A DNA stretch of 64,000 nt from Microbotryum violaceum (GCA_001244265.2 CDLV01000006.1:2728001-2792000); one strand, 5' to 3'; positions 1,553-34,500 are shown, counted from the first letter of the stretch. Numbers and translations are program-made. The notes: generated by a model not told the origin, from the sequence alone.

Positions 1553-1659
1553 GGTGCGGTCGCTAGCTAGTATGAGGTCAAAGATGAGACGAGCTGGAAC
1601 GGAGCAGACCGACGCAGGAACGCTCGCATCGGCCGACTCTTTGCGATCGTCGCTTATTT

Positions 1660-4430
1660 TCGCAAAATGAAGGCGGAGGTGTGCGCCAGAAACATGTCCA
1701 GATGTTTCACAGAACTTTACAAAGAGTTATCGAAAGCTTGCAGCTGAAGGGCTGATGAAGAGGGTTGACCTATCCACGTCTTTCAGAAGCCGAAGCACAT
1801 CGCATAGTAATAGATCGGCGGCGATCTACTTCACACCATTCCACACTTGAGTCGGTCGTCTTCAACACGTGCATCTGAATCTTCTTACCCGCCGCATCGG
1901 CCGCTCTCTGATCCTGAGACTCATTTTTCGATTTCGTCAGCTGTCCATCCTGTAGTGACCGAAGTTGATGGTCCTCGGAATAGATCGAAAAGGGGGCACT
2001 GCTAGTGTCTTCCAACTCGACTGGTGAGTTCATTGAAGGACGTTTGGGGGCCGTCATTGTTTCCAGAAAGTTGGTTGGGAAGCTGAGAGAAGTTAACTCA
2101 GACCTCAAAGAGTGGAGTCGGGCTAGACCAATTGCGGTGGGGCGAGTGAGCCTCTGTCCTGGGGGTACGGTGCGATTTGATCCGGTGGCCATGGGGGTGG
2201 ATATTTTCATTGTCGCGCGAGAACGCGCTTCTTCTAGGATGTCGTGGCGGGCGTTGACTGCTCACAGACGAGATGAATATCAGTACCTGAATATTAGTAC
2301 CCGTAATTTTGAATGTGGATAGGCGAACACTGACAGGTATGGAGAATGCAGAGCACATACACGCTTGCAATGATGATGGTAAAGAACGTCCAAGCCTGCG
2401 GCCATTACCTAAACGTGTAATAGCCTCTTTTGCACAAGCTGAGTGTCTACGACCACGCACCTGCCCAGTCGATGTCGTGATCTCGAGAATTGCCATGATC
2501 GCCGAGATAAGTGCCGGTGGAAGACACGTCGCGATAGACTGAGTCGCCAAACGGAGCAGCATGTAGTCGAGCCTGGCACGAGGAAATCAGTGGATGTCAG
2601 CCTCTCGTCAGACGGCAGGCTAAGTTGTCTCGAGTGACTCACTGATCCCCGACCGCCTCTTTTCTCGTTCGAAGTAAGAATACTGAGCAAGTCAGGGATA
2701 GGTAAATGTTCGTGATCTGCGCAAGCAGCACGACTCAGTTGTGGAAGCGGACCCATGGTAGCGGTTGCGGCGGGCACTTACGCAATTACAGAACGCCCAA
2801 GGTGGAACCCAAGGTTGTGCACGATCTTGGCTCCCTCCCGGCATTGGATACTTGACTATGCAAAACATGTGGGAAAGAGTTGAGGTAAGAGCTCAGAACT
2901 CGGATTCTGGTGCATTTACGCAGTCTGGCGATCGAGGAATGAACTGACCCCTTAGGGCGGCGTAGATGATGAAGAGGATCGTCGACCACAAGGTCCCGGC
3001 TATGGCGATGGCATTAGGGACGAGCCTTTTCTTCGATATCTGACCATTAAGAAGGAGTTCAGTCCAAGAAAATTAAGGTCTCCCTCCAGAAGCGATGGAG
3101 GCCGGGGGAGAGGTTCGGTTTGGGCCAACTCACCGACCAAAGTTGATGGCAAAGATACGACTGGGACAATGTCACCGGTATCTGGCTGATGATGATCGAA
3201 GTGAGGGTGGGCCATGGAAGAGCTCGCTTATTGTGTCGGTAGGAAGAAAGAGAGCCTGAAAGCAAATTAGCGGGAAGAAAAGTCAGTTCCGTGTCTTGAA
3301 CGGTGAATCTTCAGGGTGTCTCACCGTTTCCCACATGATCTTAATGTTCAAGCTCGACTTGCACCACAGAATCAAGACGGAAAAGGAGACACAAACTCTG
3401 TACCATCCCCCAAAGCAAGGAAACAAGAATCATAGCCCCCGATCGTCAGTCAACTCCGAGCAGCGGAAAACGACCTCGAAAAAAACACCGTCTTGCGCGT
3501 GCTAACTTTACTAACTTTACTATGGTGGGGTCCCTCGAGCCGCGAGAGAAGTAGGTAACTGCTTTCGCGGTGATCATTCCCAAGAGAAACAATTCCGTAA
3601 AATAGGCGACGATGGATGGACCTTGTTTTGAGGGGGGTTAACCACCACAGAGTCAGGACGTCACGTGAATGGTCAGTGCGATGCCTGAGTGGGGTCGCAC
3701 GCTTGAGGAGTTGAGACTGTCGGCACGTCGACATCAGGCAGATCGAACAAGGCGATAGCCTGGAGACCGTCTCGTTTGTCGTTGATGCCAAAACTAACGC
3801 CGTTGAAATGAGTCGTCTTGTACTCACCCATACCCGGTATGGAAACCCTCGCAGCGTCGAGCCCGGCTTGCGAAGGCTGAAGCCAGGTCGCCGACGACAT
3901 CGTCGCGATCGCGCCCCGTTTCGGCGGCTGGGATGCCGAATTCGGCTCCTTGAAGTCTGTTTGGTAAAAATGCCCCGTTCTGCCGCACCAACGAAGTGAC
4001 TGATTTGCGAGCAATCAAAGAGTGTCGCAAGATAGTGAGCCGTTTGAATTTGTTGTTGGATCACACGGTTCAACAGGTTTCGCCACCACAGTGCTTGAAA
4101 GGACCGCCACAGTTATCGCTAGAGCAGGAAGCAAACTTGCGGAGCTCAGTGCCTGCATCGCCAATCTCGGCCATTGGATGCCCTCCCTCCTCCATTGGAT
4201 CGAAAGCCGAACTCATATAAATGCCCGAGCGGGACGACAATAGCCGAGATGTGGGTGGGGGCACCCCGCGTGCTGATCGTGCGGCTTAAAGAATAGCCTC
4301 AGGGGGCCCGCGATGACGCTTTTAGAGCGCCGTGTGACTTCTGCCGCTTGTCAGGTACGCCATTGGGGCTTACGGTTTCACCGCTCGGTCTCGGTACCTC
4401 GGTAAATTCTCCCATGATTCAGGAGTGGAT
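1660..4430. repeat. Segmental repeat unit, copy A (left-truncated)
   Basis: Collinear direct similarity to ~5115-7832 and ~16240-18880, e.g. shared gtaatagatcggcggcgatctact and gggtccctcgagccgcg. Confidence 0.9.
1770..3900 (-). CDS. Multi-pass membrane protein, DUF6534-like family, copy A (possibly intact)
   Basis: ATG MSSATWLQPSQ... followed by a GTGAGT donor. Later exons read AYFTELFLLGMITAKAVTYFSRGSRDPTIVK, TCLPPALISAIMAILEI and ASVYVLCILHT/LNARHDI, then a polar tail (ORF 1770-2210). The 'G....Yf....D...K' N-terminus and terminal 'Y...L..LN.R' resemble basidiomycete DUF6534 proteins. Middle exons not fully resolved. Confidence 0.55.
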
Positions 4431-4713
4431 AATACTCTATCGGTCTTCGGAATGGTCGAAGAGCGGAAGGTGTTCGGAAGTGCTTTCTACGTCAATAATC
4501 CGCCGTTTTCGGATGCTTCATCGAGTCAACGGGCCGACGTAATGCCATTGCTTTCATAATAGTGTTCTGGACCACTGAATGCCGAGCCGATATCATATCC
4601 GGCGTCGATGTCGGCCTGAGAGGTCATTTTGGACTTTGTTTGCGATTGGGCGTTTCAAATTCTAGTCGACCGGGGTTCTAACGAAGGGTGATCATTTAGG
4701 AGAGCGACAGAGC

Positions 4714-7700
4714 AAGAGACACTTCTGATACCGAACTCTCAACAGAAAGCAAACTTTTGATAAGGCCTAATATCACTATCCAGTATGCGGCCGACATAAC
4801 TTCTGGCCTACTTCAGCGTTGAAGGCGTTGGAGCGTGCGAGCCGGTACCGGTGGCCTCACCTAGCTCACCCTCCTTCCCTTCTCCCAGCTGAGCCGCTTG
4901 AATGAGTTGCCTTAGGAATGAATTCGCGTGGTTCGGTGTCCATCTTTGGGGGCGGAAGCTCTGCCAAAGCTCTTCGATGAAGACGAGAGATTCGAGTTTC
5001 TTTGGTTACTTCCGAGCGATTATCCGAGCACGTCCGAGGAGACGCCGTTGTCCGTTGAGGAGGACGAGTCGAGATGGTGTAAGCGAGTTGGCCGACTTGC
5101 GATCGTTGCTTATTACGGCAAAGTGAAGGCCGCGGTGTGCTCCAGAAACATGTCCACATATTTCACACAATTTTACAAAAAGTTATCGATAGCTTGCAGC
5201 TGTAGACTGATGAAGAGCGTCGACCCTTATCCGCGCCTTTTAGTAGTCGAAGCAAATGGAATAGTAATAGATCGGCGGCGATCTACTCCACATCAATCCA
5301 CCCTTCGGTCCCCTTCAACACCTGCATCTGAAACTGTTTACCCGCCGCATTGACCGCTCTCTGACCCTGAGAGCCATCCTTCAATTTCGGTAGTTGCGCA
5401 TCCTGCAGCCACAGAAGGTGATGGACCTCGGACTCGATCGGAAAGGAGTTTCCTGCCAACTGAACCGCCGTTTCCGTGGGGTGACTCGGAGGTTTTGGGG
5501 CCGTCATTGCGTCCTAGAGGTTGGTTGGGAAGTTGAGAGGATGGTTTGGACTTGGGGGAATAGGTCTGGGTTAGTTCAACTGCTTTTGAGTTAGTGAGCG
5601 TTTGTACTGGTGCTTCAATGCGACTTGGTCCGGGGGTCAGGGGCGAAGGGTTCTTCATTGTCGAGCGAGAGCGTGCTTCCTCCCGGATCTCTTGGCGGGA
5701 GTTGACTGCTCATTGAGTGGACATGTATCAGTAGCCTTAGTTCTGAATGCGGAGAGAGGCGAACACTGACGTGAATGAAGAATGCAGAGAACATACACGC
5801 TTGCAATGATGATCGTGAAGAACGCCCAAGCCTGCCACGATTACCCAACAGAGAATTAGCCGCTGTTGCACAAGCCGAGTGTCTATCTATAAGTACGCAC
5901 TTCCCCAGTCGATTTCACGATCTCGAGAATTGCCATGATCGCCGACATGAGTGCTGGTGGAAGACACGTCGTGATAGACAGAGAGGCCAAACGAAGCAGC
6001 ATGTAGTCGAGCCTGGCACGAAGACTCGATCGGCATCAGCCTTTCGTCAGTGGACAGATTAGTTTGTCTCTAAAAACTCACTGATACCCGACCGCTTTCT
6101 TTCTCGTTTGAAGTAAGTAATATGTGGAAGCCAGGGATAGGTAGATGTCGGTGAACTGCGTAAGCAGCACGACTTGTTGTCAGTGATCGCGAGCTCGGCG
6201 ACTCGGGTACAAAGACCCATAGCAGCGGTGGCGGGCACTCACGCAAGTGCAGAACGCCCAAGGTGGAATCCAAGCATGCGCACGATCTTTGATGTCTCTC
6301 CGTACTGGATACTTGACTGGCCACCAAGTATGAGACAGCGTGGGGCGGTGAGAGCTGAGACCCTGGTGTATTTGCGCAGTCTGGCGCTCGAGGAACGAAC
6401 TAACCCCGGAGGATGACGTAGATGATGAAGAGTATCGTCGAACACAATGTCCCAGCCATGGCAATGGCGTTAGAGAGCAAATGATTCTTGGATATCTGAA
6501 CATTACGAAGGAGTTCAGTCCACGAGGGCACGCTCCAAAAGCGATGGAGGGACTAAATTCAGTTTGGGCGAACCCACCGACCAAAGTCGATAGCAGAGAT
6601 ACACCTGGGACAATGCCACCGGTATCTGGCTGATGCTGAGCGAAGTGAGGAGGGACCATGGAAGAGCTGGGTTAAGGTGTCTGTAAGGGAGGAAGAAGGC
6701 CTAGCAGAAGGGCACGAAGAAGCGCAAACAAAAGTCAGCTCCGTGTCTTAAATTGTGAAGCTTGCGGGTGTGCCTCACCGAGTTCCATATTGTCTTAATG
6801 TCCAAGCCCGACTTGCACCACAGAATCAGGACAGAAAATGCAACACAAACTCTGTACAATCTCCAAAAGCAAGGAGTCGACGAGTCAGCCACGAGAAGCG
6901 GAAAACGGCCTCGGAAAAACCACCGTGGTGCGCGCGCTGACTTTACTATTGTGGGGTCCCTCGAGCCGCGCGAGAAGTATGTTACTGCTTTCGCGGTGAT
7001 CATTCCCAAAATAAACACCTGGGTAAAATAGGCGATGACCAATGTATCTTTTTTTTGACAGAGGTAAATACCACACAGTCAGGACGTCATGTGAATGTCA
7101 GTGCGATACTGAGCCGGGCCTCCCTCGCTTGAGAAGTTGAGACTGTCGACAAGTCGAGATCATGCATATCGCACAAGGCGACAGCTTGGGGGACCGTCCC
7201 GTTCGCCGAATACTAACGCCGTTGAAATGAGTCTCGTTGTACTCACCCAGAAACGGTTTGAAAGCCCTCGTGGCGTCGAGCGTGGCTTGCGGAGGCTGAA
7301 GCCAGGTTGCCGACGACATCGTCGCGATCGCGCCCGGTTTCGGCGGCTATGGGATGCCGAGCTCGGCTCCTTGAAGTCTGTTTGGTAAAATTGCTCCGTT
7401 CTGCCGCCCCGACGAAGTGACTGATTTGCAAGCAGTCAAAGAGTGTCCCAAAATAGTGAGCCGTTTGGAATTATTGTAGGATCACACGGTTCAACAGGGC
7501 TCGCCACCACAGTGCTTGAAAGGACCGCCACAGTTATCGCTAGAGCAGGAAGTAAACCTGCATCGCCAATCTCAGCCATTGCCTGCCCTCCCTCCTCGAT
7601 TGGATCGAAAGCCGAACTCATATAAATGCCGGAGCGGGACGACAATAGCCGAGATGGGGGTGGGGGCACCCCGCGTGCTGATCGTGCGGCTTAAAGAATA

Positions 7701-7832
7701 GCCTCAGGGGGCCTGCGATGACACTTTTAGAGCGCCGTGTGACTTCTGCCGCTTGTCAGGGACGCCATTGGGGCTTACGGTTTCACCGCTCGGTCTCGGT
7801 ACCTCGGTGAATTCTCCCATCATTCAGGAGTG
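4714..7832. repeat. Segmental repeat unit, copy B (~3.1 kb)
   Basis: Begins caagagacacttctgataccgaactctcaacag, as does copy C; collinear with copies A and C. Confidence 0.9.
5227..7319 (-). pseudogene. DUF6534-like membrane protein, copy B (frameshift and premature stop in C-terminal exon)
   Basis: Paralogous to copy A: MSSATWLQPPQ..., IAYFTQVFILGMITAKAVTYFSRGSRDPTIVK, LNSRQEI. The tail that is one ORF in copy A is split over two frames here (ORFs 5338-5658 and 5283-5507). Confidence 0.55.
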
Positions 7833-8169
7833 AATTAACGCATCGCGGGGCGGCGACCAGTCCCTGAACCTCCACTGCAGTGCCCTGTATAAAGTTACAG
7901 TCACACTCACACAACCATGGCCCGAGTATAGGCAGTACCTCCTACTTAGCCGAAAGTGAATAACCACCACAAGACAAGGCTAGAGACTCTAACGACAAAT
8001 CCACATTTCGTTCAAGAGCCAACCGCGCGTCCGGAGACTTCACGATCCTTGTCGGCGGCCTCTGCTCCGAAGTCATTGACGCCGTCGCCTGCGCGTGAGG
8101 CGGACTCATGTTCGGCTGACGAGCCCTGCATGTACGCAGTCGAACCTCTACAGGAGTACGAGCTAGTAT

Positions 8170-9000
8170 CTCAACTGCGTGTTCCTGGCTGGGATCAGAT
8201 TCCAGCTTTATGGCCTGCTCCCATCGCTGAGGCGGATCGGGCTTTACGGCCTGCTCTCATTCCCGAGCCTTGTGTGCCTTTACCGCCAGCGCTGCCTCAA
8301 CTTCCTCGTTTTCAACGCGGACCATGGTGAGTTTGCTCCTATTCCTTTACCAGCTGGCGGCCCGTTGGCCGAAGGGGTTGAAGACGAAAGAGGAGCCTAT
8401 CGATCATTGACGCGAGGAGGCTGTTGAGGCTGTTAGCAGTTACGAAGACGACGACCCTGCGGAGCGTGATCCGCCTCACTACCTCCTGACGATGGTCACG
8501 AGTACCGCCTTATCGTGTCGGTCGCACCCCGGGCCAGCTCGAGAACATTAACGAGGGCAACACTATACCGGTTCGCACGCGTGCTCAGCGTCGCGTCCCC
8601 GCCCTCAGTATCGTGTCCACGCGCAAGGTTCTTCGTCGTGAACCAGAGCTCATCGCTTCGGTTTCCACTCGTCATCCACCGCTTCCCAAGACCTTCAAGG
8701 ATGCGGTGGCTTCGCCCGAGGCCGAGTCCTGGTACGCTGCGTCGGCCAAGGAACTTAACTCCATGGGCTTGCACAAGGTGTTCAAGCTTTCGAGTCCACC
8801 TACTGGGGCTCGTACCCTGGGCTATCGTTGGGTGTTTACTCGAAAGGAAGACGCCGAGGGCAACATCATCAGCTACATGGCTCAGCTAGTCGTCCAAGGC
8901 TTTGCTCCACGACTGGGGATCAGCTACAGAAAGACGCTTGCTCTTGTCTCGTCGATCACGACGATCTTGTTCGTCGTCCGCCTTTGTGCCGCTCGCGGAC
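8170..9000 (+). mobile_element. Degenerate Ty1/copia fragment (post-integrase region and N-terminal reverse transcriptase)
   Basis: ORF 8613-9077: PKTFKDAVASPEAESWYAASAKELNSMGLHKVFKL...LGYRWVFTRKEDAEGNIISYMAQLVVQGF, the start of a copia RT (RVT_2). Sequence differs from the element at 10.2-15.5 kb. Confidence 0.85.
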
Positions 9001-10239
9001 TGGTCCTGACTTCTCGGCGTCGCTGCCTCTTTTCTATCGGAAGTCTATCTTCCGCGCTCGCATGTTTTCTGCGTTAGTTGTCAGTGACTGTAAAACGCAA
9101 GAAACCGAAACCGGCAGTAGTGAGCCGGTATAAAAGGTGTCGTTGCGATTTGCAGGCTTGAACTCACTACCATGAGCTTCGGTGCTCGACAAGTCAATAT
9201 TCAGCTCGGCGTCCATTGCCGAGCGCTTGACAGGGGAGGCGATGACCCGCTTGGACTGAGTTGGACGGTCGGCGGGGGCGTGGTCTGGCATGTCATCTGC
9301 CGCACATCAGCCAAGGAAAGTACATCAGGCACATGCAATATGCACAAAAATATGTATTCAAGAAGTATTCACGTCGTTCTGGTGGTGCACGCGAATCCTG
9401 AGGGGCACGAAGTTTGGGCGCCCGTGCCGCTGCATTTGCCGGAGGACCTGTCCCCTCAAGTGCGAGCCTCGACGGTGCAGACAAGCGCACACAGATCACC
9501 TTCACGGAGGATGGTGTGTGCAAATCGCCCGGGCTGCCCATGGAAAGTCACGGGGAGTGGCGTCGGAGATCCTTCGGCGCACTTGCGACCGGTAAAAAGC
9601 CCCTCTCGGACATCCGCGTAAAATCGACTGTAATCGGGCAGGTCAAGAAGGTTCTCCCAAGCGGTTCGCCCCCTGTGCAATTTCCCAATGACTGCAAACA
9701 CGCTTGTCAGCCCAATCATCAGATCCTGGAGCCTACAAAAGCAAAAATGCAAATTACTACTTACACCTTGGGGATGATTAACTGGTGGTGGATGAAGACC
9801 ACCTGCGGCTTCGCCGTTAGGTTTGGCATGTTGACTTCGATCGCTGGCCGGGCCGGGTGAGGATGAGAAAGAGGAAGGAGTCAGGTTTCTGCAACGGATT
9901 CAGATATCAGAGGTACCACGGCTTACATTGGCCGTTCCCCAAGTTCCACGTCGTTGCCGCATGTTCAGAAAACAAGCATCGCAACTCGGACTCTATGCCC
10001 TGAGTCGCAAGCGCCTCGGACGTCACGAGCTCGAGGCCGATCTCACGGATCAAATGCTGCGGCTGCTGTCTTTCCGGCGGCAAGTGCTCGCGACTGAACA
10101 TACAAACGTGGCTCAACCACTCCAACAATCGTTTCACCTTCCCTTGCCTCACAATCATCGGTCGACACTTGTCTAGTTCGGTCAAATCAGCTTTAGCGCC
10201 GCAAAACAATACGCACACGCTGTCGGCTAATTGCTCGAC
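9000..10239 (-). mobile_element. Probable highly decayed Helitron-type remnant (DUF6570-like segment)
   Basis: CVLFCGAKADLTELDKCRPMIVRQGKVKRLLEWL resembles the 'V.F.G...P..VR..KV...L.WL' motif upstream of Helitron_like_N in fungal Helitron proteins. Bases 9000-9075 recur inverted at 15530-15705. Confidence 0.45.
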
Positions 10240-10422
10240 TGAGTTGATGTGTTGTGAATGAGGATTAGCAGGAAGGCGGCTATCGGTTATTTGAGTAGAA
10301 GCGCGCGTTTGTTTAGTGAAGCCTGGCGATGCGCACCAACCGTTGTCTTCTCTCCACGGTTAGATTACACGCTCGTCAGGTACGTACATCTAGCATTACG
10401 GCTACTATCATATGTAATTACA
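10240..10422 (+). repeat. 5' LTR of the copia element (boundaries approximate)
   Basis: tgagttgatgtgttgtgaatgaggattagcaggaaggcggc...gattacacgctcg is repeated at 15382-15517; this copy continues to ...gtaattaca. Confidence 0.85.
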
Positions 10423-11381
10423 TGGGTCGAGCGCATCGCCGTCGACAAATGGCTCACACAAGGAGAGGGCGTCGAGCTTCGCTGAGCGCATGAAATCGTC
10501 CGAAGCGCGACCGAGATCCTTATCGAGCGCGGCCCACAGATCGTGCGTGGCGTTGGCTTTGACGCGGGCGAAGGTGGACTCCCCCAAGCATACGATTAGC
10601 GTGTTGCGCGCTTGCGCAAGGGCCTGGTCGAGAGCGTCAACATCCTGACGGTACAATCGAAGTTGGTTGCGATAGGTGGCCACATCGTCTACCCGGTTGT
10701 CGCCCTCCAAGCGTCCAAGCGAGTGAACTCGGACTGCAAAGGCTCGGGGCCGACGTCTAGAGCACCGGTGACGTGCTTGAGGCGGCCCTCGCCTTTCAGG
10801 ACGTTCTGCAGTCGTTCCCTGCCAACACCCTTATTTGGTAGCGTCTGTATTGCCGCAAGGCACAGATCCGCACGCAGAAAAGACGCGGCGCATATCCAAG
10901 GTGGCGAGTCCCACGGCTGACCACGTCAGTCTGATGGGCGACCTATACGGCAAAGTCGACGCCACCAATTGGGGTGTTGGCAGGGAACGACTGCAGAACG
11001 TCCTGAAAGGCGAGGGCCGCCTCAAGCACGTCACCGGTGCTCTAGACGTCGGCCCCGAGCCTTTGCAGTCCGAGTTCACTCGCTTGGACGCTTGGAGGGC
11101 GACAACCGGGTAGACGATGTGGCCACCTATCGCAACCAACTTCGATTGTACCGTCAGGATGTTGACGCTCTCGACCAGGCCCTTGCGCAAGCGCGCAACA
11201 CGCTAATCGTATGCTTGGGGGAGTCCACCTTCGCCCGCGTCAAAGCCAACGCCACGCACGATCTGTGGGCCGCGCTCGATAAGGATCTCGGTCGCGCTTC
11301 GGACGATTTCATGCGCTCAGCGAAGCTCGACGCCCTCTCCTTGTGTGAGCCATTTGTCGACGGCGATGCGCTCGACCCATG
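10421..11381. repeat. 410-bp inverted repeat (arms 10421-10830 and 10972-11381, 141-bp spacer)
   Basis: 10421-10830 reads as the reverse complement of gag 10972-11381 with no mismatch found by eye. Identical peptides appear on opposite strands in the ORF track (10408-10710 minus vs 10969 plus; 10612-10920 plus vs 10831-11190 minus). Confidence 0.97.
10836..10845 (+). promoter_or_regulatory. Putative primer-binding site (initiator tRNA-Met type)
   Basis: TGGTAGCGTC differs by one base from the Ty1 PBS TGGTAGCGCC and lies just upstream of the probable gag ATG at 10934. Confidence 0.6.
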
Positions 11382-14300
11382 GCTTGCGAACTTCAACCGG
11401 TTGTTTGAGGACCTCGTCGCCGCCCACGTCTCCCGTGACAAAGCCTATCAACGCGCCAGGATCGACGGCACATCGTTTACCCAGAGCGATTTCGACAAGT
11501 GGATACCACCGCCCGCGCTGTCCGAGGGCGTTCGCATGGACCTCTTGAAGGCTAGGATGCCGAGGAACCTCGTGACGGTCATCGACTTCATCGGCACGCT
11601 CCCATTGCTCGAGCAAGTTGAGGGCGCGATACGTAGGGCCGCACTTTCCTCGAGCCAGCAGACCGAGCCCATCGCGGGGGCATTGGCGGCACGGGTGCAG
11701 TCTCGGAGTCAGCCAGCCTCGGGTCGTCCTCGCTCGAAACCCTCGGGTCGTCCTTTCGGTACCTCGGCGCCTCCCTTCCTTCAGGCCTCGAGGGTGCCCG
11801 GCCTCAAGGAGAGGTGGCCTCACGGGATCTCGCACGCTGGTCGCCTGAAACTGGGTCGGATGCAGTGCAGAAGGTGCTACGAGCAGGGACATCTTGGCGA
11901 CGAATGCACGGTGCCCTCGGCAGAGGTCTCTCGCCGCCGCATCGCTGTTCTTGCCAAACACAACATCACCATTGGCGCGGCCGACGTAATGGCGCTCGTC
12001 GCCGTCGACCGTGCACCCGAGGCTCAGCTCGAGGACGAGGCCTACGAGGGATACTTTGTCGTCGGCGTACCCAGTGGTGACGACGACATGGCGCTGTACC
12101 TGAGCGACATCCCGCGCTACTTGCTTGATTCGGGTGCGACCCGCCACATGACGACTTGCCGGGACCTCCTCATCGACTTCAAGCCCTTCACCACGGAGCG
12201 CGTCCGGGTCGTCGGCGCCTTCAACTCCAGTGCCATGGCGACCGGTACGGGCACTCTCCGGTTCGGTGTCGACGAAGCGTCCATCGAGCTCCACGACGTC
12301 CTCCTCGTCCCCGGTCTGTCCGCCGAACTCGTCTCTCTCGCCGGCCTGATGAAGGACGGGTATGAGCTATCCAACGAGTGCGACGCGGTTGGGAAACATA
12401 CCGGGATCGTGATCTCCAGCGCGACCTCCTGCCTTTCCTTCGCCCTCGATCGCAACCACTACGTGCTTCAGGCAAGTTCTCACCCACCTCGGGCGGATCA
12501 CCTGGTGCTGACTGCCACCACCTTGCCTACAGACGTAGTGCTTTGGCATCAGCGCTTGGGTCATCCTTCTTGGGGTCGTTTGGTAGAGCCTGTTAGGTCG
12601 GGTCAAATTCCACTCGACGTAGCCGCTGTAACTCCGGATCAGATTCGCCTCCTCGATCAGTGCGATGCTTGCTGCGCCGGCAAAACCGTCTCTTGCCCAA
12701 ACCGGGAACCCGCGAGCCACCCCGTGGACGCACCTTTCTCCCGTGTCTTTGCCGACGTGTGGGGTCCTTCCCCTGTGCCCGCACTTTCGGGTGCTCGTTA
12801 CCTCTGCGGCATCACGGACGAGTTTTCGCGCTTCCGCTGGGATCGCAGCATCCGGCTCAAGAGTGACTCGGCAGCCGTCCTTCAGGATTTTGTTGCGATG
12901 ACGAAGACCCAGTACGGGGGCCAGGGCGTCACGACGCTGCGCACGGACAGAGGGGGCGAGTTTGTGAACCACAGGCTCCGGGATTGGCTCGCCGCGCGGG
13001 GCATTTTCCACGAGCTCTCCACAGCGTACGAGCACGGCCAGATGGGCGTTCAGGAACGCAGCTGGCGAACGATCTTCAACTCCGTTCGCGCCTGGCTCCA
13101 TCGCTCGGGACTGCCTCCCACACTTTGGGATGAAGCGGCGCACGCCGCGATCTACGTCATAAATCTGCTCCCCTCCTCGCCGCTCCAGCAGCGCACCCCA
13201 GACTCTGTGCTGCACGAACCCTCGGACCCGGTCACGGACACCCGCCGCCCCCGCCTTGACCGTGTCAAGACCTGGGGCTGTGCCGCTCACGTGCCGCTCG
13301 CTCCCGAGCCACGTCCCAACAAGCTGGCCCCGCGATCCCGCCTCTGCTACTTTGTTGGCTACTCCTCGCGATCCAAGGCCTGGCGCTTCTTCGATCCGGT
13401 TCGCAACAAGGTCTTCGAGTCGTCTCAGGCCAGGCTCTTTGAGGACCGTTTCTTTCCCGCTGCGGTGAGCCCTGCCATGCCTGCCATCCCTGTCGCGGTC
13501 GGTTTGTCTTACCCGCCCGCGCTGCTTGGCATCAGTTCCGACGCTGCGCCCCCTGTCGCCGAAGTGCCGGCCGTGGCTCCCGCTGCCGCCGCTCCGCCAC
13601 CCGTTCCGCCCGCGCTCGCATTTTCGAACCCTGGCCCGATAAACGCACCGCCCGATGGTGATCGCTCCACCCGGACCCGTCGTCCGCCTGACTACCTCGG
13701 ATTTGCTCACGCGGCACAGCATTGGGAGTTTGCCGAGCACGCGGCCATCCAGTTCGATAACTTCGACGAAGGTGACCCTGACACGCAGATGTACTCGTTG
13801 AGGGAGTCTCTGCGCTCCTCGCCAAAGATTGACAGCGATGACACTCCTTCGGTCCAGGCCGCCCTCGCTGGCCCCTTTCGGATTACTGGCTGGCCGCCAT
13901 GTCGGTGGAGGAGGGAGCTCTCACCGCTAAGAACACGTTCTCCAAGCCGGTTCGACCCCCGCCCGGGGCCATTGTCATCGGGAGCATGTGGGTGCTCCTC
14001 GTCAAGCGCAATGCGGAGGGTCAAATTGTCAAGTACAAAGCTCGACTTGTTGCGCGCGGGGACATGCAAAAACGCCGGGGGATGCATATCGATTCGTTCT
14101 CGCCCACAAGTCGAGCCGCCTCCCATCGACTGTTACTCGCCCTCGCCGTCGAGAACAAGTGGGAGACCCGCCAGTTCGACGTCTCGTCTGCGTACCTCAA
14201 CGGCAACCTTGGCGGGACGGAGATCTACATGCGACTACCCGGAGGCGATATCGTGCGCTTGCAGCGCGCTCTCTACGGCCTCGTTCAGGCGGGCCGCGAG

Positions 14301-15410
14301 TGGTACAAGGTCTTCATTGAATAGACCCTGTCCATTGGCTTCACCCGCACCGACAGTGACCATGCCGTTTTCGTTCGCAAAGAGGGGGATCGACGGTCTT
14401 TCCTCTCCATTCATGTCGACGACGGTCTGCTCACGGGTGACGGGGATCTCGATGGCGTGCTTTGTCAGCTCAAGGCTCGGTTCGAAGCTCGCAGCACCGA
14501 CGAAGCTTCCTTCTTCCTCGGCCAGAGCATCCGTCGCAAGGGCAAGACGGGTGCTGCGATCGTCAACCAGGGACATTTCGTCGATGCCATCCTCGAGGAA
14601 CACCACATGGCCAATGCCTCCCCCCGCCACACGTCTCTCGCGGCTCCGTCGACTCTGAGGAATCGCGCTGACTCCGGTTTTGATCCTGCCTCGATCCCCT
14701 ATCGCGCCATTGTAGGCAAGCTCTTATACCTCTCTGGCACCACCCGACCCGACATCGCGTTCGCCGTTTCAAAGGCTACTCGTTTCTGCAACGACTTCAC
14801 AGTGGAGCATTGGGAGGCGCTCAAACACATCCTGCGCTACCTTGTCGGTACCCGCAATTTTGGCATCCGCTATCAGAAGTCCTTCCAGCCTATGTCGGCA
14901 ATCTTGGAGGGATTTGCCGATGCTGATCACGGCGCTGACCCGGTCACTCGCCAGAGCGTCTCGGGCTACGTGTTCATGTGCGCTGGTGGGGCTATCTTTT
15001 GGATCGCCAAGCGACAGACTCTCGTCACCCTCTCCAGTACCGAGGCCGAGTATGTGGCCATGTCATACGCCGCTCGCGAGGGGATTTGGTTACGTCGTTT
15101 GCTTGCGGATCTTGGCTTCGAGCAGACCGCTCTGACTCGTTTGCGGGGTGACAACCAGTTCGCCATCACTCTGGCCAAGTACCCGGCTTTCCATGCTCGT
15201 ACCAAAAATATTGGCATCCACTTTCACTTCATCCGGGACCACATCGCGGAAGGCACGATCGAGATGGTCTGGGTGCCCACGGACACCATGGCTGCGGACG
15301 TCCTCACCAAGGGGCTCGGGACTCAGAAGCACTATCAGTTTGTACACGCGATGGGGCTTATAGATTCATCGCGTGAAGGGGCGAGTTGGTGTGTTGTGAA
15401 CGAGGATTAG
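10934..15410 (+). pseudogene. Copia gag-pol polyprotein, disrupted
   Basis: Gag NWGV.RERLQNVLKGEGRLKHVTG; zinc knuckle CRRCYEQGHLGDEC; protease LLDSGATRHM; WHQRLGHPS..CDAC; integrase DVWGP, RTDRGGEF; RT KYKARLVARG, FDVSSAYLNG, HVDDGL; RNase H ADADHG, SSTEAEY, DNQ. Split over ORFs 10835-11113, 10969-14658, 13899-14324 and 14457-15410. Confidence 0.95.
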
Positions 15411-15517
15411 CAGGAAGGCGGCTATCGGTTATTTCATTAGAAGCGCGCGTTTGTTTAGTGAAGCCTGGCGATGCGCACCAACCGTTGTCTTCTCTCCACG
15501 GTTAGATTACACGCTCG
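15382..15517 (+). repeat. 3' LTR of the copia element (truncated)
   Basis: Direct repeat of the first ~135 bp of the 5' LTR with about five differences by eye; preceded by purine-rich gaagggg (PPT-like). Confidence 0.88.
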
Positions 15518-15561
15518 GACTCATAACCTATCGCAGAAAAGATGCGAGCGCGGAAGTAAAG

Positions 15562-15705
15562 CCTTCCGATAGGTGAGGGTGCACAACGCCGAGAAGTAAG
15601 GACCACAATGTAGAGCGAGTGATAATAAGTATTCCATAACTAACCTTCCGATAGGTGAGGGTGCACGACGCCGAGAAGTCGGGACCACAATGTAGAGCGA
15701 GTGAT
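15562..15705. repeat. Short tandem duplication (~60-bp unit x2) in a TE remnant
   Basis: ccttccgataggtgagggtgcac.acgccgagaagt..ggaccacaatgtagagcgagtgat occurs twice. Confidence 0.8.
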
Positions 15706-15832
15706 GAGAAAGCTCTCAAGAGTAAACAGACGCGCCCAACTTAAACAGATCAAACCCCAATACCAAAGTGACTAATGACTAAACGCACGCGCATCCGCGC
15801 AGATACCACAGGCACAGACACATATCAAATGA

Positions 15833-18800
15833 CAAGAGACACTTCTGATACCGAACTCTCAACAGGAAGCAAACTTTTTGATAAAGGCCTAATATCACTA
15901 TCCAGTATGCGGCCGACAGGATTTCTGGCCTACTTCAGCGAAGGCGTTGGAGCGTGCGACGGTGCGAGGCGGCACCGGCGGCCTCACCTAGCTCACCCTC
16001 CTTCCCTTCTCCCAGCTGAGCCGCTTGAGTGAGTTGCCTTGGGAATGAATTCGCGTGGTTCGCTGTCCGGCTTTGGGGTCGGAAGCTCTGCCAAAGCTCT
16101 TCGATGAAGACGAGAGATTCGAATCTCTTTGGTTTCTTCCGAGCGTTCATCCGAGGACCTCCGAGGAGACGTCGCTGTCCGTTGAGGAGGACGAGTCGAG
16201 ATTGGGTAAGCGAGTCGGCCGACTTACGATCCCTATATCCGCAAAGTGAAGGCGTTGCGCCGGAAACTTGTCCACATGTTTCACACGACTTCACAAAGAG
16301 TTACTGATAGCTTACAGCTGAAGGCTGATGAAGAGGGTCAACCTTATCCGCATCCTTTAGTCGCCGAAGCAAATCGAACAGTAATAGATCGGCGGCGATC
16401 TACTCCACACCAATCCACCCTTCGATCCCCTTCAACAGCTACACCTAAAACTTTTTATCTGGCGCACCCACCGTTATTTGACCCTGAGAGCCATCCTCAG
16501 ATTCCGTCCCCCGCGCATTCTGAAGCGACCGACGACGATGGTCCTCGGAATAGATCGAAAAGGGGGCATCTTCCAACCCAACTCGACGGCCGGCATGTTC
16601 ATCGAGTGACGTTCGGGGGTCATCGTGGCGTCCAGGAGATTTGTCGGTAAGCTGAGAGGATTTGTTGGACTTGAGCGAGTGGAGCCGGGGTAAACAAACT
16701 GAGTTTGAGTCAGTGAGCCTTCGTCCTGAGGCTTGGTGGCGATTCGTTCCGGGGGTCAGGGGCGAGGAGTTTTTCATCGTCGAGCGAGAGCGCGCTTCCT
16801 CCAGGATCTCTTGGCGGGAGTTGACTGATCACAGAATGGATACGTATCAGTACTCTCAAATTGCAATGTGGGGAGGCGAACACTGACGAGAATGTAGAAT
16901 GCAGAGCGCATACATGCTTGCGATGATGATGGTGAAGAACGACCAAGCCTGCGGCCATTACCAACCACCGAGAATTAGCCCCCTCTTGCATAAGCTGCGT
17001 TTCTAGAAGTACGCACATCCCCAGTCGAGGTCGTGATCTCTAGAATTGCCATGATCGCCGAGATGATTGCCGGTGGAAGACACGTCGTGATAGACAGGGA
17101 CGCCAAACGAAGCAGCATGTAATCGAGTCTGCCACGAGGAAATCAGTGGATGTCAGCCTCTCGTCAGACGGCAGGCTAAGTTGTCTCGAGTGACTCACTT
17201 ATCCCCGACCGCCTTCTTTCTCGTTCGAAGTAAGAAAAATGTCGAGGACAGGGATAGGTAAATATCCGTGCACTGCGTAAGCAGCACGACTTGTTGTTAG
17301 TTATCGCGAGCTCGGCGGGTTGGGTACGATGACCCGAAGCAGCGGCGGCCGGCACTCACGCAAGTGCAGAACGCCCAAGGTGGGACCCAAGCATGCACAC
17401 GATCTTGGCCTTCTTTACGTACTGGAGTCATGACTGGGTACGAGATACGAGAAAGCGCGGGACGGTGAGAGCTCAGACCCCGGTGCATTTGCGCAGTCTG
17501 ACGGTCGAGGAATGAACTGACCCCGGAGGCTGGCGTATATGATGAAGAGGATTGTCGAACACAATGTCCCAGCCACAGCGATGACACTAAAGAGGACGTG
17601 CTTCTTGGATATCTGAAAATTACGAGGGAGTTCAGTCCACGAGGGCACGTTCCAAGAGCGATGGAGGGACTATATTGAGTTTGGGCCAACCCACCGACCA
17701 AAGTCGATAGCAGAGATACACCTGGGACAGTGTCACCGGTATCTGGCCGATGATGAGCGAAGTTAGGAGGGACCATGGAATAACTTGCATAATGTGTCTG
17801 TAAGGGAGGAAGATTGCCTAGAAGAAGCGCACGAAGAAGCGCAAACAAAAGTCAGCTCCGTGTCTTGAACTGTAAATTTTGCGGGTGTGTTTCACCAAGT
17901 TCCATATTGTCGTGATGTCCAAGCCCGACTTGCACCACAGAGCCAAGACAGAAAATGCAACACAGACTCTGTACAGTACAATCCCCCAAAGCAAGGAGTT
18001 AAAAATCATATCGCTCGATCGCTAGTCAGCCACGAGAACCGGAAAATGGCCTTAAAAACTACCCGGTAGTATGGGGCGCGTGCTAACTTTACTAGTGTGG
18101 GGTCCCTCGAGCCGCGCGAAAAGTAGGTAATTGCTTTCGCGGTGATCATTCCCAAGATAAATACTTCCGTAAAATAGGCGATGGTCAATGTACCTTTTTT
18201 GAGGGAAGTAACCACCGCAGAGTCGAGATAATGTGAATGGTCAGTGCGATCCTCCCGCGCTTCAAAAGGAGTTGAGGACGTCAACACGTGGAGATCACGC
18301 AGATCGAACAAGGCGACAGCTTGGAGAAGGCCTCGTTCGCCGTTGACGCCAATACTTGATAACGCTTTTCAAATGAGTCGCCCCGTACTCACCTATGAAC
18401 GATGCGGAAGGCCCCGCAGCGTGGGGCCCGGCTTGCGAAGGCGGTTGAAGCCGGGTCGCCGATGACATTTTCGCGAGCGCTCGATGTCCCGGGGAAGCAG
18501 GAAAACAGCAGAGCGCGGCGATTTAGAGGCCGAATTCGGCCCCGTGAAGTCGGTTTGGTAGAATTGATCCGTTCGGCCGCACCGACGAAGTGACTGATTT
18601 GCGAGCAGTCAAAGAGTGTCGCAAGACGGAGACGTTTGAAGTGGTTGTTGGATCACCCAGTTCAACAGGGTCAGCGACAACAGTGCTTGAAGGGACCGCC
18701 ACGGTTATCGCTATAGAGCAGAAAGCAAACTTGCGGAGTTGCCAGCGTCGACCAAATGCCTGGGACGACAGTATCCAAAATGGTGGGCTTTAAAATGGTG

Positions 18801-28543: not shown

Positions 28544-31500
28544 TCACTTGGAGTAAGGTGCTCGACTGGCGAGGTTGGTCCCGTCGAAAGCATCCACCAC
28601 CCAGATGCTACCCGACTCGCGTTCAACCCCAGTACCCCACTGTCAGGCATTCGACAAAAAGTCACATCCGTCAGCTCCGAAGCCCACAACATGTGAAAGT
28701 ATCCATTGAACGACTCACCTCCCCGGCATCTTCGAACTCGGTCCCATTGACCCACCGCTTCCACGCCTCGAAAACACCCGCTTCCATATTCCTCACCCAC
28801 CGCCTCGTATCGAACAATGGACTCGTCTCGCGCGTAAGATACAACGTCTTTCTCATGTCCGCCAATTCACCTCGGCCAATTCGTTGTTGCCTCGAGTAAA
28901 TCGATTGAGCAGGGGCGGCAGGGTCAGGGAGGACGTAGTCGTAAGTCAGAGTCGAGGCGAGTTGTAGAGCACGTTTTTCATATTCCTCGTCTGAGGAGAC
29001 GATCATGCGTGGTCCGAGACCGGTCGCGACGGCGATCGAGGCGGCAACTCGGGAAGCCATCTTGTGCGCGTGACGAGGGTAGGTGAGAAGAGGGGTCCCG
29101 GACCATAAGATATCGGCTGCGGTCGTATGCGCGTTGCACTGCATCGCATCAGGCGAGAAAAAGTAGGCTTCAAAGTCAGCAAGATTCGAAGAAGTAGTCG
29201 GATCGGTCTCGCGCACCTCAGTCGTATCCAGGAACAGGTCGGCAACGCGGCCACGTCGAACATGTTCGTTCTGCGAGTAAACAGGTGATCGATGAGCACG
29301 CAAAAAAAGACACTTCGCAAGGATCAAGCTGCGTACCTTGTTGGCCACATCGGTAAAGATGATTCGAGCGGCAACCTCGGGTCCGGCCCACTTGAGCGCC
29401 GTGCTCTTAAGATGCGCTTCGCCTGGCGCGGGGAAGCGCAAGAGCCATAAGATGGAGTTGGGGAATTTAGCGAGGATGTTGAGCCAGATGCGGAAGATGA
29501 AGGGGTCGATCTATGCGATGCATAGATCATGCCACGGATCAGCTTCCAAGGTTCTGAGAGGTCATGACAAATCCCGTGAACGCACCTTGTACAGCTGGTT
29601 CCAATTGGCAAAGATGAAGGTGTCGTCTCGGATGCCGGGGAATAACTCTCGACGCATATGCCATCGTCTAGCCTCCTCGATCGCGTATAGCTCATTGGGC
29701 ATACCCGAGTGCACAAAGGGAGGCTCGCCAACGGTCAAACCGGCGGTTTCGTCTTCGCGCCAAGCTTGCTTGTGGTCCGTCACGAAGTACGAGTGCGGGA
29801 GGTACAGCACTGTGATGGGTGGCAAAGCGATGGTCGGCAACTCTGAAAGCCAACATGTATCATTAACACTCACGTTTCTCCGTGTAGACATAGTCCTCGG
29901 TCATCGCTTCGGGGTCCGGATCACCCTCAAAGTCGGTCGGGCTATCGACCCCCTGTACATCCGGGGAGGCGGCCTTGAGACCGGCGCGCGCGCGCCAATG
30001 GTCACCCGAAACGAGGCCAGGCGGACAAACGATGGGATCTGCAATACGATTACCACTGCATCAGCGCACCCACACATACTTCTTTACTCGAAGTGCAACT
30101 CACCAACGATGAAGTAATCGCACCACCCCGCCGCAAGCGTTCCCGCAAAACCCATGTAACTCATCTGCACCGGTGCCGGCCGCGCCGCAAAGATCTCGTT
30201 CTTCGCACCTTTCGTATACCCCGATAAATTGATCAAGACATGAATTTCGTCGCGGACAATTTGGTCGACGATCTCTTGCGTCGAACGGGCGGAAACGTCG
30301 TAGAAGTTCTGACTTTCAGCCTCGATCTTGAGTCGATAGGGCGAGCGATCGCTCGCCGAGGTCGCGTAGACGAAGATGTTGAAGCAGGTCGTGTCGTGGA
30401 AACCAAAGACACTCTGCATGAGGTGCGACAAAGGGTGGTTGCCGAGATCGCTGGAGACGTACCCGATGTTGAGAACACCTTGAATCGGCGGGCGCGGAGG
30501 GGGAAGCACGAAATCGGGCATCCAGGGTTGGTTGAGGGTCGCACGCGAGATGCTCAAACCGGTACGATGCGAGATGAGTCGAATCTCTCTTGCGCTAACG
30601 GGCAAGGTGAAGCAGTGGAATGGAAGGACGGTTGGCACACCCACGGGAGGTAAGACGGGTGGCAGCATTGGTCGGCGATAACTGACGAGATCCTCGGGCG
30701 TCGGCATGATGCGCAGAGCGGTGGGTGCGGCCGCGATGTTGGGGCCGTAGGTCGAAATGTACCATCGTCGTTGGATGCGGCGCATCAAGCGTTCGACAAG
30801 TCGAATGAGGTACCCGCCTTCGTTGTGAGGGTAGGTCTTGCGGTTTTTGGGGTTGAGGAGAAACTCGAGGCGGAATTTCCAGGTCGACATCGCGTCGCCG
30901 ACTTGTTCAGGCGCCAGCCCATAGATCGCCTGACTGATGATGCGCAGCCAGTGGTCAAGATCTCCGACGGCGCGCAGAGAGCCGGCGCCGTACCCCATCC
31001 CATCGGCGAGCTGTGAGCCAACGAGCGCCGAAATCTGACCCATGTACCCCGAACTGGAGCTGAATGCACCTGCCTTAGCGGGCGGGGCAGGCGCGAGCCT
31101 CGTCTCGTTGTCGACAATCCATTCTTCGTTGACGCCACCGCGGCCAGCCCAGTCGCAGACGCCGCCGAGCGCATTGACGAGCCCACAGGTTGCCTCAGGG
31201 AAGTTGGGGTTCAGCTCGACGGCGCGCTTGTAGTAAGGGATGGATTCTTGGATCTGACCCGAATCCTTAATCGCATTCGCAAGGTTCGCCAAGGCCACGT
31301 CGAATTTGGGATTGCATTCGACCGCTTTCTTGTAGTGCCGGATCGCTTCGGGAAGGTTGCCCATGTCCTTCAGCAACGATCCGAGATTCGTGTACAGGTG
31401 TGGGTGCTTAGTATCAAGTTTGAGTCCGGCGTTGTAGTATCGTAAAGCAAAGTCTTGACCCGACAATACTGAACGGGGTGAAGTTGGAGGGAGCCCCAAC

Positions 31501-34500
31501 TGGGCAGGGGCAACTATTGCCGTTGCGTTGACCGTCGACAGCAGAATTCCGAGATTGTTGCAAGTCGAGGGCGAAGGGTGCAGCGCGAGGGCGAGGTAGT
31601 ACATCGGTAAGAGCAACGATGGCGAGCAAGGGATACCCCCTAGCGTCAGTTTGTTGGCTGGGCCCGACTGAGCAGCCGAGTCCTGGAACACCTTGGCGAG
31701 CGTCAAGAGCATGGTGCTCGTCGTTTGCTTGACCTGCTGGATCGCGGTCGCCTTGCTGGGGTCGTCTATTCCGTCGGCTTCCCGCATCGAAGGAAGTACC
31801 CCTTGAAACTCTCCGAAGATGTAAGGTAGCATCCGGAAAGTCTGCTCTGGAGTGACGAGAACGGCGGGCAAGACACCGCCGCCGAGTCGGAGGAGACCTT
31901 CGACGTAGTGATCGCCGCCTCGCTGGATGATCCCGATGAGGTGGGCAAAATTCATTCTGCCGCGCTCATCGGCTAAACCCAACTTGTGCAGAACATCCCC
32001 GACAGCATGTCGAGACTCTGAAGAGTTTCCATTGAATTGAGCATGCGTATTGAGGACCTTGGCCATGATAAACGCTGCAACAACGAAATCACGAGTCGAG
32101 CATCCGCCGACGGGGTAGATCGTCGTCTGGCTCGCGCGGATCGAAGCTGGAAGTGAGAGCGCCAACTCGATTGCCTTCTCGTACTCTTCCTGCGCTGCAG
32201 CCGCATTATGCACGGCCAGTCGGAGGTTGCCCTTGGCGTACAGCAAATTCTGCAGGCGGTGGACCTGGTTCATCGGGATGCTCTGGGGTAGTCGACGTGG
32301 TCTTTCGAGCTTGCCTTCAGGCGAGGCGTAGGTTGCGATCGCGTCCCTGCTGGGCTCGAACCCGATTGACAGGCCGGATTCGCTGGCAAAGATTTGCACT
32401 TCGACAAAGTTGCACAGCTCAAGCGCCTGTTGATACCTCGGTTCGGTGGCTGGCGCAGGCGCCCCATCTGATCCACCATTCTGGCCTTGTTGAGACGTGG
32501 AAACGGGGTTGCACAAGACCCCGAGCAGGTTTTCTGTCGCGTCCCAATACGTCGGCCGCAGTTTGATCGCTTTCCACCACCATGCCTCCGCTTCCTGCCA
32601 TCTTCCCATTGCGCGCAGTGTCGTGCCAATATTTGACATTGCTTCGACCTTTAAAAACCCCGGACATACGTTTAATCAGCAGAGGCTCAAGTGAACCCCG
32701 AATCAGAACAAAGGACTCACATAACCAGGGTCCTTCATCAACAGCTTCTTGTTGTAGTACAGCGAGCTCTCGTATTCGCCCCGGGTGTAATAGACGCAGC
32801 TCGAAAGTAAGAGCGTCGGCAAATGATCGGGATGTATTTCCTCGAGCGTGTGCAGTAGTGGGAGCAAGTCCGACGAGTAGGGATCTTTAGCGTAGAGTGA
32901 ATGCGCGTAGGAAAGAAAGTAGTCGCGCTTCTCGGGGGTGAACTCGCCTCCGAGATTGACTTGCTCGAGTATTGTCGAGACGGCAGCAGAGGCCTGACTT
33001 ATTGGATCTGCGGCTGAGGAAAGATCTACTGTCGAGTCGGCTGCTGAGGTAGTAGCTCCGGGCTCGGAAGGTGCCGTTGTGGATGGTGTCGAGGTGGGGG
33101 GAGCAGCGATCGTCTCGGGTCTCAACTCAAGGAGATCCAGACCTCCGACATGTGATCGATCCTGAATGTGTTGCGGAACATCCACTCCGAGGTTCTCGAG
33201 CGCAGTGCCTGCAACGCTAGCCATCTCCTTCGCCGCCAACGAATTAGCCGCGATCGCTGCGGCCGCGGCAGCCTGGACATGAATCGCTTGAGCCTGCTCG
33301 GTACCGCCTGTAATCTGCGCCAAGCCGTTCAGCGAGAAGTCGGTCGGTGTAATTGCCGAACTTGTTGATGCCGAAGCCGCCTGGTGTGCAAGATCTGGTC
33401 CTGAAGAAGTGGCATTCTGGGCAACGGGGGATTGCGCAGCGTTTGCGAGACGCTTGACGGCTTCTCTGTGCAATTGAGCAAAGTACCCACTCGCGAGCGC
33501 ATCCAGCTGTCGTTTGTATGTTGCAGCGTAGGCCGAAAGGTCGATGTTGAGAGTGTCTTTCGCTTTCAAGCCCGATGTCGAGGTCGGGATCGATGTCGGA
33601 GACGCACCACTAGCACTCGAGGATCTGGCGGCAGCTTCCACGGCCAAGAGGACCGCCTTTTCCTTGTTCGCCTCGACTTGTTGTCCCACCTGATCGACTT
33701 GCTCCTTCAGAGCCCACCTGGCCATCCGTTTCGCGATGGTCGAGATTTCGCGTTCACTAAACGAAGGTAAGGGAGCCATCGGCGGCCGAGCAGTAGAAGA
33801 TGAAGGGTCGGATACGGAGGAAGGGGTAGTGGGTGCGCGTTTGGCCTGGGCAACGCGCTCTCGTGCGGCTTGGTACGACCAGTCTTCAATGCTTGAGAAT
33901 ATGGGTTTCTTCGATAACCAGCCCAAGGGGCCTTCGCTCGCCGGAGTCGAAGGCGCGACGATGCCAGGAGTCGGCGGCGAGAATACCTGACCGAGCAGGA
34001 GGGGTAGAGCCGGGTGATCGCCGATGGACGTGAAGGGAAGCGACGGTCTCCTCGCCGGAATCTCGGCATTCGGACTGGACTTCGTGCTCGACCCATGTCC
34101 ATTGGGCTCGTTCCCGACCCCATTCTCTCCGCTTGTCGGCTCCGATCCGCTTATTGGGGCGTTGGGTCCGAACAGCTCGGACCCTTCGAGGTCGGGTACC
34201 AGTGCGCTCGGAGACGGCGGAGGCAACGCCATGGAAGAGAGGTACGATGCGGCATCCATCCTGGTAGCGATTCTTCGCTGTTCTGTCGGCGAGTTCGTGC
34301 GGGCGAGGGTGAGCAGTAGGGGTGCCGGCAAGCTAAGGATCGAGGCGACCTGGACAGCAGTTTGCACGACTTGATTCGGCACCGGCTGCGATGCGGGCAA
34401 AACGGGGAAATGGGTCGAGCTTGAGTAGGGGGAACGTAGATAGGTCGGCGAAGGATCTGGTGAGGATGCAGATGGAAGGTCGAACGGAATTTGAGAAGTC

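Follow-up and report, generated by a model that had tools for sequence, protein, structure and literature searches.

Results

Structure of the inverted repeat

We have analysed a 64,000 nt stretch of the Microbotryum violaceum genome assembly (GCA_001244265.2 CDLV01000006.1:2728001-2792000), referred to here as the window, in which a Ty1/copia retrotransposon carries, directly behind its 5' long terminal repeat (LTR), an inverted copy of the first part of its own gag region. This copy, arm 1, occupies 10421-10830 on the minus strand and is the perfect reverse complement of arm 2, the original sense gag segment at 10972-11381 on the plus strand, which is continuous with the gag-pol reading frames. 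A repeat search combined with a base-by-base check established that the arms are complementary over 410 nt without mismatch and that complementarity ends abruptly outside 10421 and 11381. The repeat search itself calls a 415 nt pair, 10421-10835 and 10967-11381, 131 nt apart, with mismatches only at 10831 and 10832. The initial annotation had described a mismatch-free 410 bp antisense copy of gag at 10421-10830, coordinates which the base-by-base comparison found to be exact. An origin of a perfect 410 nt inverted repeat by chance is far beyond expectation. It is the only long perfect pair among the three inverted pairs detected in the window, which is free of N.

The arms are separated by a 141 nt loop (10831-10971, plus strand) that contains the last 5 nt of U5, the primer-binding site (PBS), the leader, the gag start codons and the first gag codons, and that is partly self-paired in the predicted fold. 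The PBS-like sequence TGGTAGCGTC, which we take to match the 3' end of initiator tRNA-Met, is located at 10836-10845 on the plus strand, 6 nt past the point at which normal LTR sequence resumes, and is the single exact match in the window; no tRNA genes were found in the 64 kb. The initial annotation had given a loop of this length, placing TGGTAGCGTC at position 10836 and an ATG at position 10934, and both elements are present there. Of the two junctions, the left (10420|10421) is blunt and the right shares a single nucleotide (C at 10830), with 10830-10835 and 10967-10972 pairing at four of six positions, no better than chance could give.

The two other inverted pairs are of a different kind. 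One consists of 199 nt arms, 97% complementary and 738 nt apart (46887-47085 and 47824-48022), possibly the termini of a small DNA transposon, and the other extends over 102 nt at 77%.

Identity and decay of the copia element

The element which harbours the repeat was classified by its Pfam domains. An open reading frame (ORF) at 10921-14658 (frame 1) encodes, in order, Pol_BBD (aa 400-481), gag_pre-integrs (514-588), rve (604-703) and SH3_retrovirus (775-845), followed in frame 0 by RVT_2 in 13842-14321 and 14325-15380. This order, protease, integrase and then RVT_2, identifies a Ty1/copia element, as had been proposed. The remainder of gag-pol beyond the second arm, 11382-15381 on the plus strand, comprises the protease-region barrel, integrase and reverse transcriptase and is degenerate. 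In the arm region itself, no Pfam family matched at E ≤ 0.01 and thus no recognisable Gag domain is present. The designation gag is based on position, as this is the first ORF after the PBS and lies upstream of the protease, and on relatives sharing the N-terminal part. A protein search with the N-terminal part detected 14 such proteins, all from Microbotryum (11 from M. silenes-dioicae, 3 from M. saponariae), at 54-96% identity.

The retained portion of the 5' LTR, U3-R and most of U5, extends over 10240-10420 on the plus strand, the last ∼31 nt being absent, and is delimited by its direct repeat with 15383-15517 and by a contig described below. The 3' LTR (15383-15517, plus strand) is preceded by the polypurine-tract-like motif GAAGGGG, read from the sequence at 15375-15381 on the same strand, and is cut off after 135 nt, where it gives way to an unrelated high-copy repeat; loose contig ends at 15517 mark the same point. 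Over the comparable segments, 10241-10375 and 15383-15517, the LTRs show 97% identity, differing at 4 of 135 positions, in agreement with the earlier observation that the two LTRs differ at several sites.

The lesions of this copy could be defined by comparison with contigs of four public sequencing runs of related organisms (X1, X3, X13 and X15), aligned at ≥85% likeness. None of these runs is from the source strain. At the site of the family's first ATG the window reads GTG (10901-10903, plus strand), position 10901 being G in the window and A in the contigs of all four runs, so that the start is lost. The relatives agree: the N-terminal stretch is present in 9 of the 14, eight of which have Met (KM/MA..TADH.SLMGDLYGK) where the window reads Val, while in the ninth, P0118, the Met is one residue upstream (KMVTTT...). 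A second in-frame ATG follows at 10934-10936 (plus strand). This second ATG had been taken as the probable gag start; it is indeed an in-frame ATG, but the first start of the family is the one at 10901.

The frameshift reported near 11105 is real and results from an 8 bp tandem duplication, CGCTTGGA twice, at 11081-11096 (plus strand), which moves gag from frame 2 to frame 1 and is mirrored in arm 1 at 10706-10721. The 8 additional letters are absent at 11081 in the covering contig of all four runs, and the relatives have an unbroken ...EFTRLEGDNRVDD... that joins window frame 2 (from 10934) to frame 1. Further downstream, integrase and reverse transcriptase lie in different frames, with insertions or deletions relative to normal copies at 13797, 13824 and 13880, reverse transcriptase is split by a stop at 14322-14324, and the end of the 3' LTR is absent from the element. 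With its start changed to GTG, frameshifts in gag and pol, a stop in reverse transcriptase and a truncated 3' LTR, this copy is dead.

Normal copies of the family

The contigs also reveal what a normal copy looks like across the site of the inversion. Contigs of the family are ∼97.3-97.8% identical to the element, with other letters at 19 of 798, 13 of 509, 32 of 1477 and 121 of 4458 positions. A contig in X15 runs from 15258-15389 straight into 10248-10420, indicating that the 5' LTR extends to 10420 rather than to 10375 and that no filler precedes the arm. Filler DNA at 10376-10420 was considered and rejected, this segment being normal LTR sequence in the X15 contig. Loose contig ends at 10420 (X1, X3 and X15) continue into normal LTR sequence that is absent from the window. 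On the other side, a loose end is present at 10830 in X1, and a joint from 10379 to 10830, with 3 letters between, is found in three of the four runs (X3, X13 and X15). Overlap of the two loose ends places ∼31 nt between 10420 and 10830 in normal copies, a distance which no single listed contig spans.

Annotated proteins provide the same picture. In 7 of the 14 relatives the gene model reads ...QLTDGWITRSSVSYLVASV... straight from the LTR end to the PBS, whereas in the window the 410 nt arm lies between M*L (10412-10420) and YLVASV (from 10832), the only parts retained. The 11 intervening codons, TDGWITRSSVS, correspond to 33 nt, the last 2 of which are window 10830-10831. As read from these alignments, the antisense arm replaces the last ∼31 nt of U5 except for its final 6 nt, and is absent from normal copies of the family. 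The arm had been placed between the 5' LTR and the PBS, which is correct as to position, but the interval it occupies is not an intact LTR-PBS gap as U5 sequence has been lost. Arm 1 (10421-10829) has next to no contig cover of its own, the depth of its bins being explained by the LTR and by sequence from 10830 onwards. No opposite-strand joint at 10420/11381 or 10830/10972 occurs among 15 joints listed of 33 in the four non-source runs, in which contigs show presence, not absence. A search of the window for an empty site, using strings from the loose contig ends, likewise found none.

Contig depth over the element was ∼760-870 in X1 and 20-30 in X3, compared to 57-65 and 3.3, respectively, in the flank. 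Depth is not copy number, and these values give only a rough hint of ∼6-15 collapsed family copies per genome. No further copy of the element was found within the window.

Two observations concern the normal LTR. It contains an internal direct duplication of ∼24-28 nt, a stretch like 10356-10379 recurring just before the LTR end, which accounts for the breaks in short-read contigs at this point and for an apparent joint that skips 450 nt. In addition, several gene models of M. silenes-dioicae and M. saponariae have their start within the LTR and continue across the PBS into gag.

Source and age of the antisense arm

The two arms are identical down to the private 8 bp duplication, while other members of the family differ by more than 2%. 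The arm was thus templated in cis. A second, nested element as the source of the arm is excluded by the same private duplication together with full arm identity.

The arms also differ from the LTRs in how far they have diverged. No difference is observed in 410 positions between the arms compared to 4 in 135 between the LTRs (Fisher p = 0.0036), and the probability of zero arm differences at the LTR rate is 4e-6. TCG/CGA sites, 30 in each arm, are likewise without a single difference; TpCpG is the reported target of a process resembling repeat-induced point mutation (RIP) in Microbotryum (PMC5381629). The simplest reading is that the inversion event is very recent.

The initial annotation had concluded that the inversion is younger than both the insertion and its decay. 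The shared lesion and the contrast between 0/410 and 4/135 support this order of events. The age inference is nevertheless weakened, as gene conversion can keep closely spaced inverted repeats identical and could have homogenised the arms here.

Origin of the inverted repeat

The explanation we prefer, although it might equally well turn out to be wrong, is that the repeat is a young, strain-private fold-back mutation in an already dead Ty1/copia copy, an incidental scar of repair from which silencing is possible but for which it was not selected. A bottom-strand 3' end would have arisen at ∼10830, at the U5/PBS border, as either a resected chromosomal break or the end of minus-strand complementary DNA (cDNA) during reverse transcription. 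This end would have folded back on its own strand ∼140 nt further in, primed at ∼10972 and copied 410 nt of gag, after which the new end would have been joined bluntly to the LTR at 10420 with the loss of ∼31 nt of U5. In yeast, fold-back inversions are described as proceeding through resection, formation of a hairpin in single-stranded DNA and extension, and include a class with large loops (PMC7467729). Two features of such events are seen here, a unique spacer, the 141 nt of PBS and leader, and the missing ∼31 nt of U5, in a junction pattern that would fit the yeast fold-back scheme.

Several points weigh against this account. Independent read support for the two junctions was not found among 24 runs, the best of which contained 0.42 of the sampled words of the stretch, and an assembly error therefore has some probability. 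The priming stem is very weak, with 1 nt perfect and 4/6 overall, and the junction does not prove the mechanism. Only 6 nt separate the right junction from the PBS, an unlikely position for a random chromosomal break, which points instead to reverse transcription; arms born in reverse transcription would be as old as the LTRs, in conflict with 0/410 unless gene conversion intervened. Finally, the term incidental represents a default rather than a result, and effective production of small interfering RNAs (siRNAs) from the locus is possible.

The first of these points raises the alternative that the genome lacks the inverted copy, which would be a product of polishing, of gap filling or of chimeric reads. 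Long-read and amplified libraries are known to contain errors of the fold-back chimera type. In favour of this are the 100% identity of the arms and a structure that, as far as seen, is confined to this assembly; in addition, no run of the source strain is among the 24 compared. Such an error would nonetheless have to place two exact junctions at a distance of 410 nt well inside 64 kb of gap-free sequence and also remove 31 nt cleanly. A read with a missed adapter would give a palindrome with zero loop; here the loop consists of the element's own PBS and leader, there is no adapter and no zero-loop palindrome, and a second repeat of this type is absent from the window. Known biological fold-back repair moreover yields the same junction pattern (PMC7467729). 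Overall, we regard an assembly or sequencing artefact as unlikely, but as a chance to be taken seriously.

The position of the junctions bears on a second alternative, in which the repeat was present from the birth of the copy. Self-priming of retroviral minus-strand DNA is established. Minus-strand cDNA would have extended a few bases beyond the PBS, into U5, folded back and primed its own synthesis on gag; plus-strand strong-stop DNA would have joined prematurely at 10420, and gene conversion would have kept the arms identical since. Both junctions fall in the terminal 37 nt of U5, next to the PBS, a border at which strand transfers occur, and we estimate that this placement would be a <1% coincidence for a random break in a 5.3 kb element. 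Set against this is the divergence already described, 0/410 in the arms versus 4/135 in the LTRs. The pathway further requires either a parent RNA with the 8 bp duplication, which is absent from the covering contigs in all four runs, or later conversion of the arms, and a described precedent was not found among the papers listed by a literature search. Birth during reverse transcription is the most doubtful of the explanations considered here, and the repair scar in a dead copy remains the one that we favour.

Hairpin RNA and silencing potential

Whatever the origin of the repeat, its RNA product would be distinctive. The predicted fold of 10376-11420 contains the full 410 bp stem with a minimum free energy of -1024 kcal/mol, and the opposite strand likewise by symmetry. 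A transcript that folds into 410 bp of double-stranded RNA, as had been proposed, is thus what the fold predicts. Any transcript across 10421-11381, from either strand, would be expected to fold to a perfect 410 bp duplex and would be a Dicer substrate. At ∼97.5% identity, roughly half or more of the 21-mers of the arm would match normal copies.

The cellular machinery for processing such an RNA is reported for M. lychnidis-dioicae, in which the RNA interference (RNAi) set consists of a Dicer (MVLG_01202), two Argonautes (MVLG_06823, MVLG_06899) and an RNA-dependent RNA polymerase (RdRP; MVLG_02137), all four being expressed in every condition examined (PMC4469406). Copia elements in Microbotryum are described as active with recent bursts (bioRxiv 10.1101/2022.08.03.502670). 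Among the 24 public runs, none on record as RNA contained the stretch, which says nothing about expression. Small-RNA studies of Microbotryum were not found among the papers listed by literature searches, and work on fungal hairpin small RNAs (PMC9757828) does not mention the genus. Judged by its structure, the locus is a ready candidate for a hairpin-RNA gene, which may be transcribed, diced and effective.

These properties bring in a further explanation, that of a working killer allele, as the initial annotation termed it, in which the arms are transcribed from the 5' LTR or by read-through from the flank, the duplex is diced and gag siRNAs silence copia relatives in trans. The structure and fold are those required. 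The 5' LTR retains U3/R and matches normal LTRs at ∼96.5% (other letters at 6 of 173 positions), the RNAi genes and active copia elements are those just described, normal copies are ∼97.5% identical to the arm, and Mu killer of maize is a reported precedent (PMC3440606, PMC11624286). Transcription, small RNAs and effect would, in contrast, all have to be read from structure, and the junctions from the assembly. The copy is situated among nested, degraded transposons, a setting in which promoters are often silent, and perfect arm identity implies that the allele is very young and that selection has had no time to act. We consider this explanation improbable. In its fullest form, a silencer of the Mu killer type, an LTR-driven gag hairpin would give rise to siRNAs that silence roughly ten or more near-identical, recently active copies in trans, and one event of fold-back repair would have given Microbotryum a dominant and heritable restraint on a burst of retrotransposons; we hold this to be more improbable still. 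Of the original killer proposal, the structure, the shared lesion and the fold stand. The word killer implies an effect and possibly selection, and an incidental scar fits the observations equally well or better.

Host and other features of the window

An ORF at 36085-37446 encoding Rft1 is 100% identical to M. lychnidis-dioicae MVLG_04461 over 83% of the query and 93% identical to the M. saponariae protein. The window is thus from M. lychnidis-dioicae or a very close relative, and the fungal host assumed in the initial annotation is borne out.

The copia element lies within a nest of other transposon fragments, and its left flank is repetitive in the four runs. A second RVT_2 fragment (8490-9074, plus strand) is present in the region directly upstream, and a DUF6570 fragment, presumably Helitron-associated, at 9910-10359 on the minus strand on the upstream side of the element. 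A unit of ∼3.4 kb occurs three times in direct orientation at 1640-7835 and 15952-18734, with spacings of ∼3,440 and ∼11,120 nt; its pieces are 61-96% identical and its ORFs lack a Pfam match. Copies 2 and 3 are further apart by ∼7.7 kb, made up of the transposon nest with the copia element, indicating that the nest inserted into a local tandem triplication. The high-copy repeat that follows the truncated 3' LTR, 15518-15835, has the top contig depth of the examined stretch in X1 and X3, with depth much raised over 15525-15825, and contains an 82 nt tandem pair (15562-15628 and 15644-15710). It is inverted with respect to 9001-9046, and an opposite-strand joint 9001/15745 is detected in three of the four runs.

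Elsewhere, a 15 nt unit, CTCAAGACACCGAAC, forms a tandem array of ∼9-10 copies, several of them perfect, at 50483-50647, and a segmental duplication (48852-49820 and 54554-55767, 5.7 kb apart) has pieces that are 97-100% identical. A TPR and GT41 (O-GlcNAc transferase-type) gene extends across at least two ORFs at 28671-32675 on the minus strand, presumably split by an intron. Other genes in the window encode a YEATS protein, a proteasome subunit, an ESCRT-II subunit and a BAR-domain protein.

Discussion

The inverted repeat described here joins a known kind of structure, transposon-derived inverted duplications with hairpin potential, and is a candidate for a locus similar to Mu killer (Muk). 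Muk is a natural inverted duplication of a partial MuDR element which is reported to silence the Mutator family of maize (PMC11624286, PMC3440606). In both cases part of the element's own coding sequence is inverted and duplicated such that one transcript would yield a long hairpin homologous to an active family. The differences are substantial. As described, Muk derives from a DNA transposon, its ∼4 kb hairpin RNA arises by read-through from a flanking gene, and it operates in a plant with RNA-directed DNA methylation. The copia locus, unlike Muk, is an LTR retrotransposon in a basidiomycete, with internal arms of 410 bp and its own LTR as the presumed promoter. The siRNAs and heritable silencing of Muk are reported as demonstrated, whereas the copia locus is known from its sequence. 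The single Muk feature found at this locus is the inverted duplication of the element's own sequence.

A closer relative in terms of element class is EVD (ATCOPIA93) of Arabidopsis, for which an antisense nested self-insertion has been proposed as the hairpin source for silencing (PMC11624286). Here too, copia sequence is present in sense and antisense orientation in one locus, and a role in the start of family silencing is, in that account, proposed rather than proven. The EVD arrangement is described as a further complete insertion, its LTRs being separated by 1.9-2.6 kb. The Microbotryum arm, in contrast, is a 410 nt piece copied in cis with a 141 nt loop and a 31 nt deletion, and is thus of a repair or replication type and not a product of transposition.

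With respect to mechanism, the nearest parallel is provided by fold-back inversions in Saccharomyces cerevisiae, in which the spacer likewise represents the hairpin loop, a short inverted match primes synthesis and sequence is lost at the break (PMC7467729). The yeast events are described as being of chromosome scale and as needing secondary stabilisation. At the copia locus, unlike in yeast, synthesis would have ended after 410 nt, rejoining would have been local and the pre-existing inverted match is 4/6 nt.

Hairpin RNA (hpRNA) genes of Drosophila and palindromic siRNA loci of Naumovozyma castellii consist of inverted repeats of hundreds of base pairs in one RNA that is diced to siRNAs, many of them related to transposons. 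Small-RNA data define those loci, which are conserved or, at the minimum, fixed, whereas the copia locus is defined by its sequence alone and looks both private and very young.

How silencing of an active transposon family begins is an open question, for which Muk is the classic natural example. For copia elements, hairpin-forming rearrangements appear from the available account to have been only suspected so far (PMC11624286). Microbotryum unites active copia bursts, RIP-like mutation and a complete, expressed RNAi set. If the locus is silent, or the repeat an artefact, it is one more scar in a transposon nest. If the silencing reading is true, the private 8 bp duplication and private bases would mark siRNAs specific to this copia locus, and a fresh hairpin allele directed against an active family would show the start of RNAi-based silencing in a fungus.

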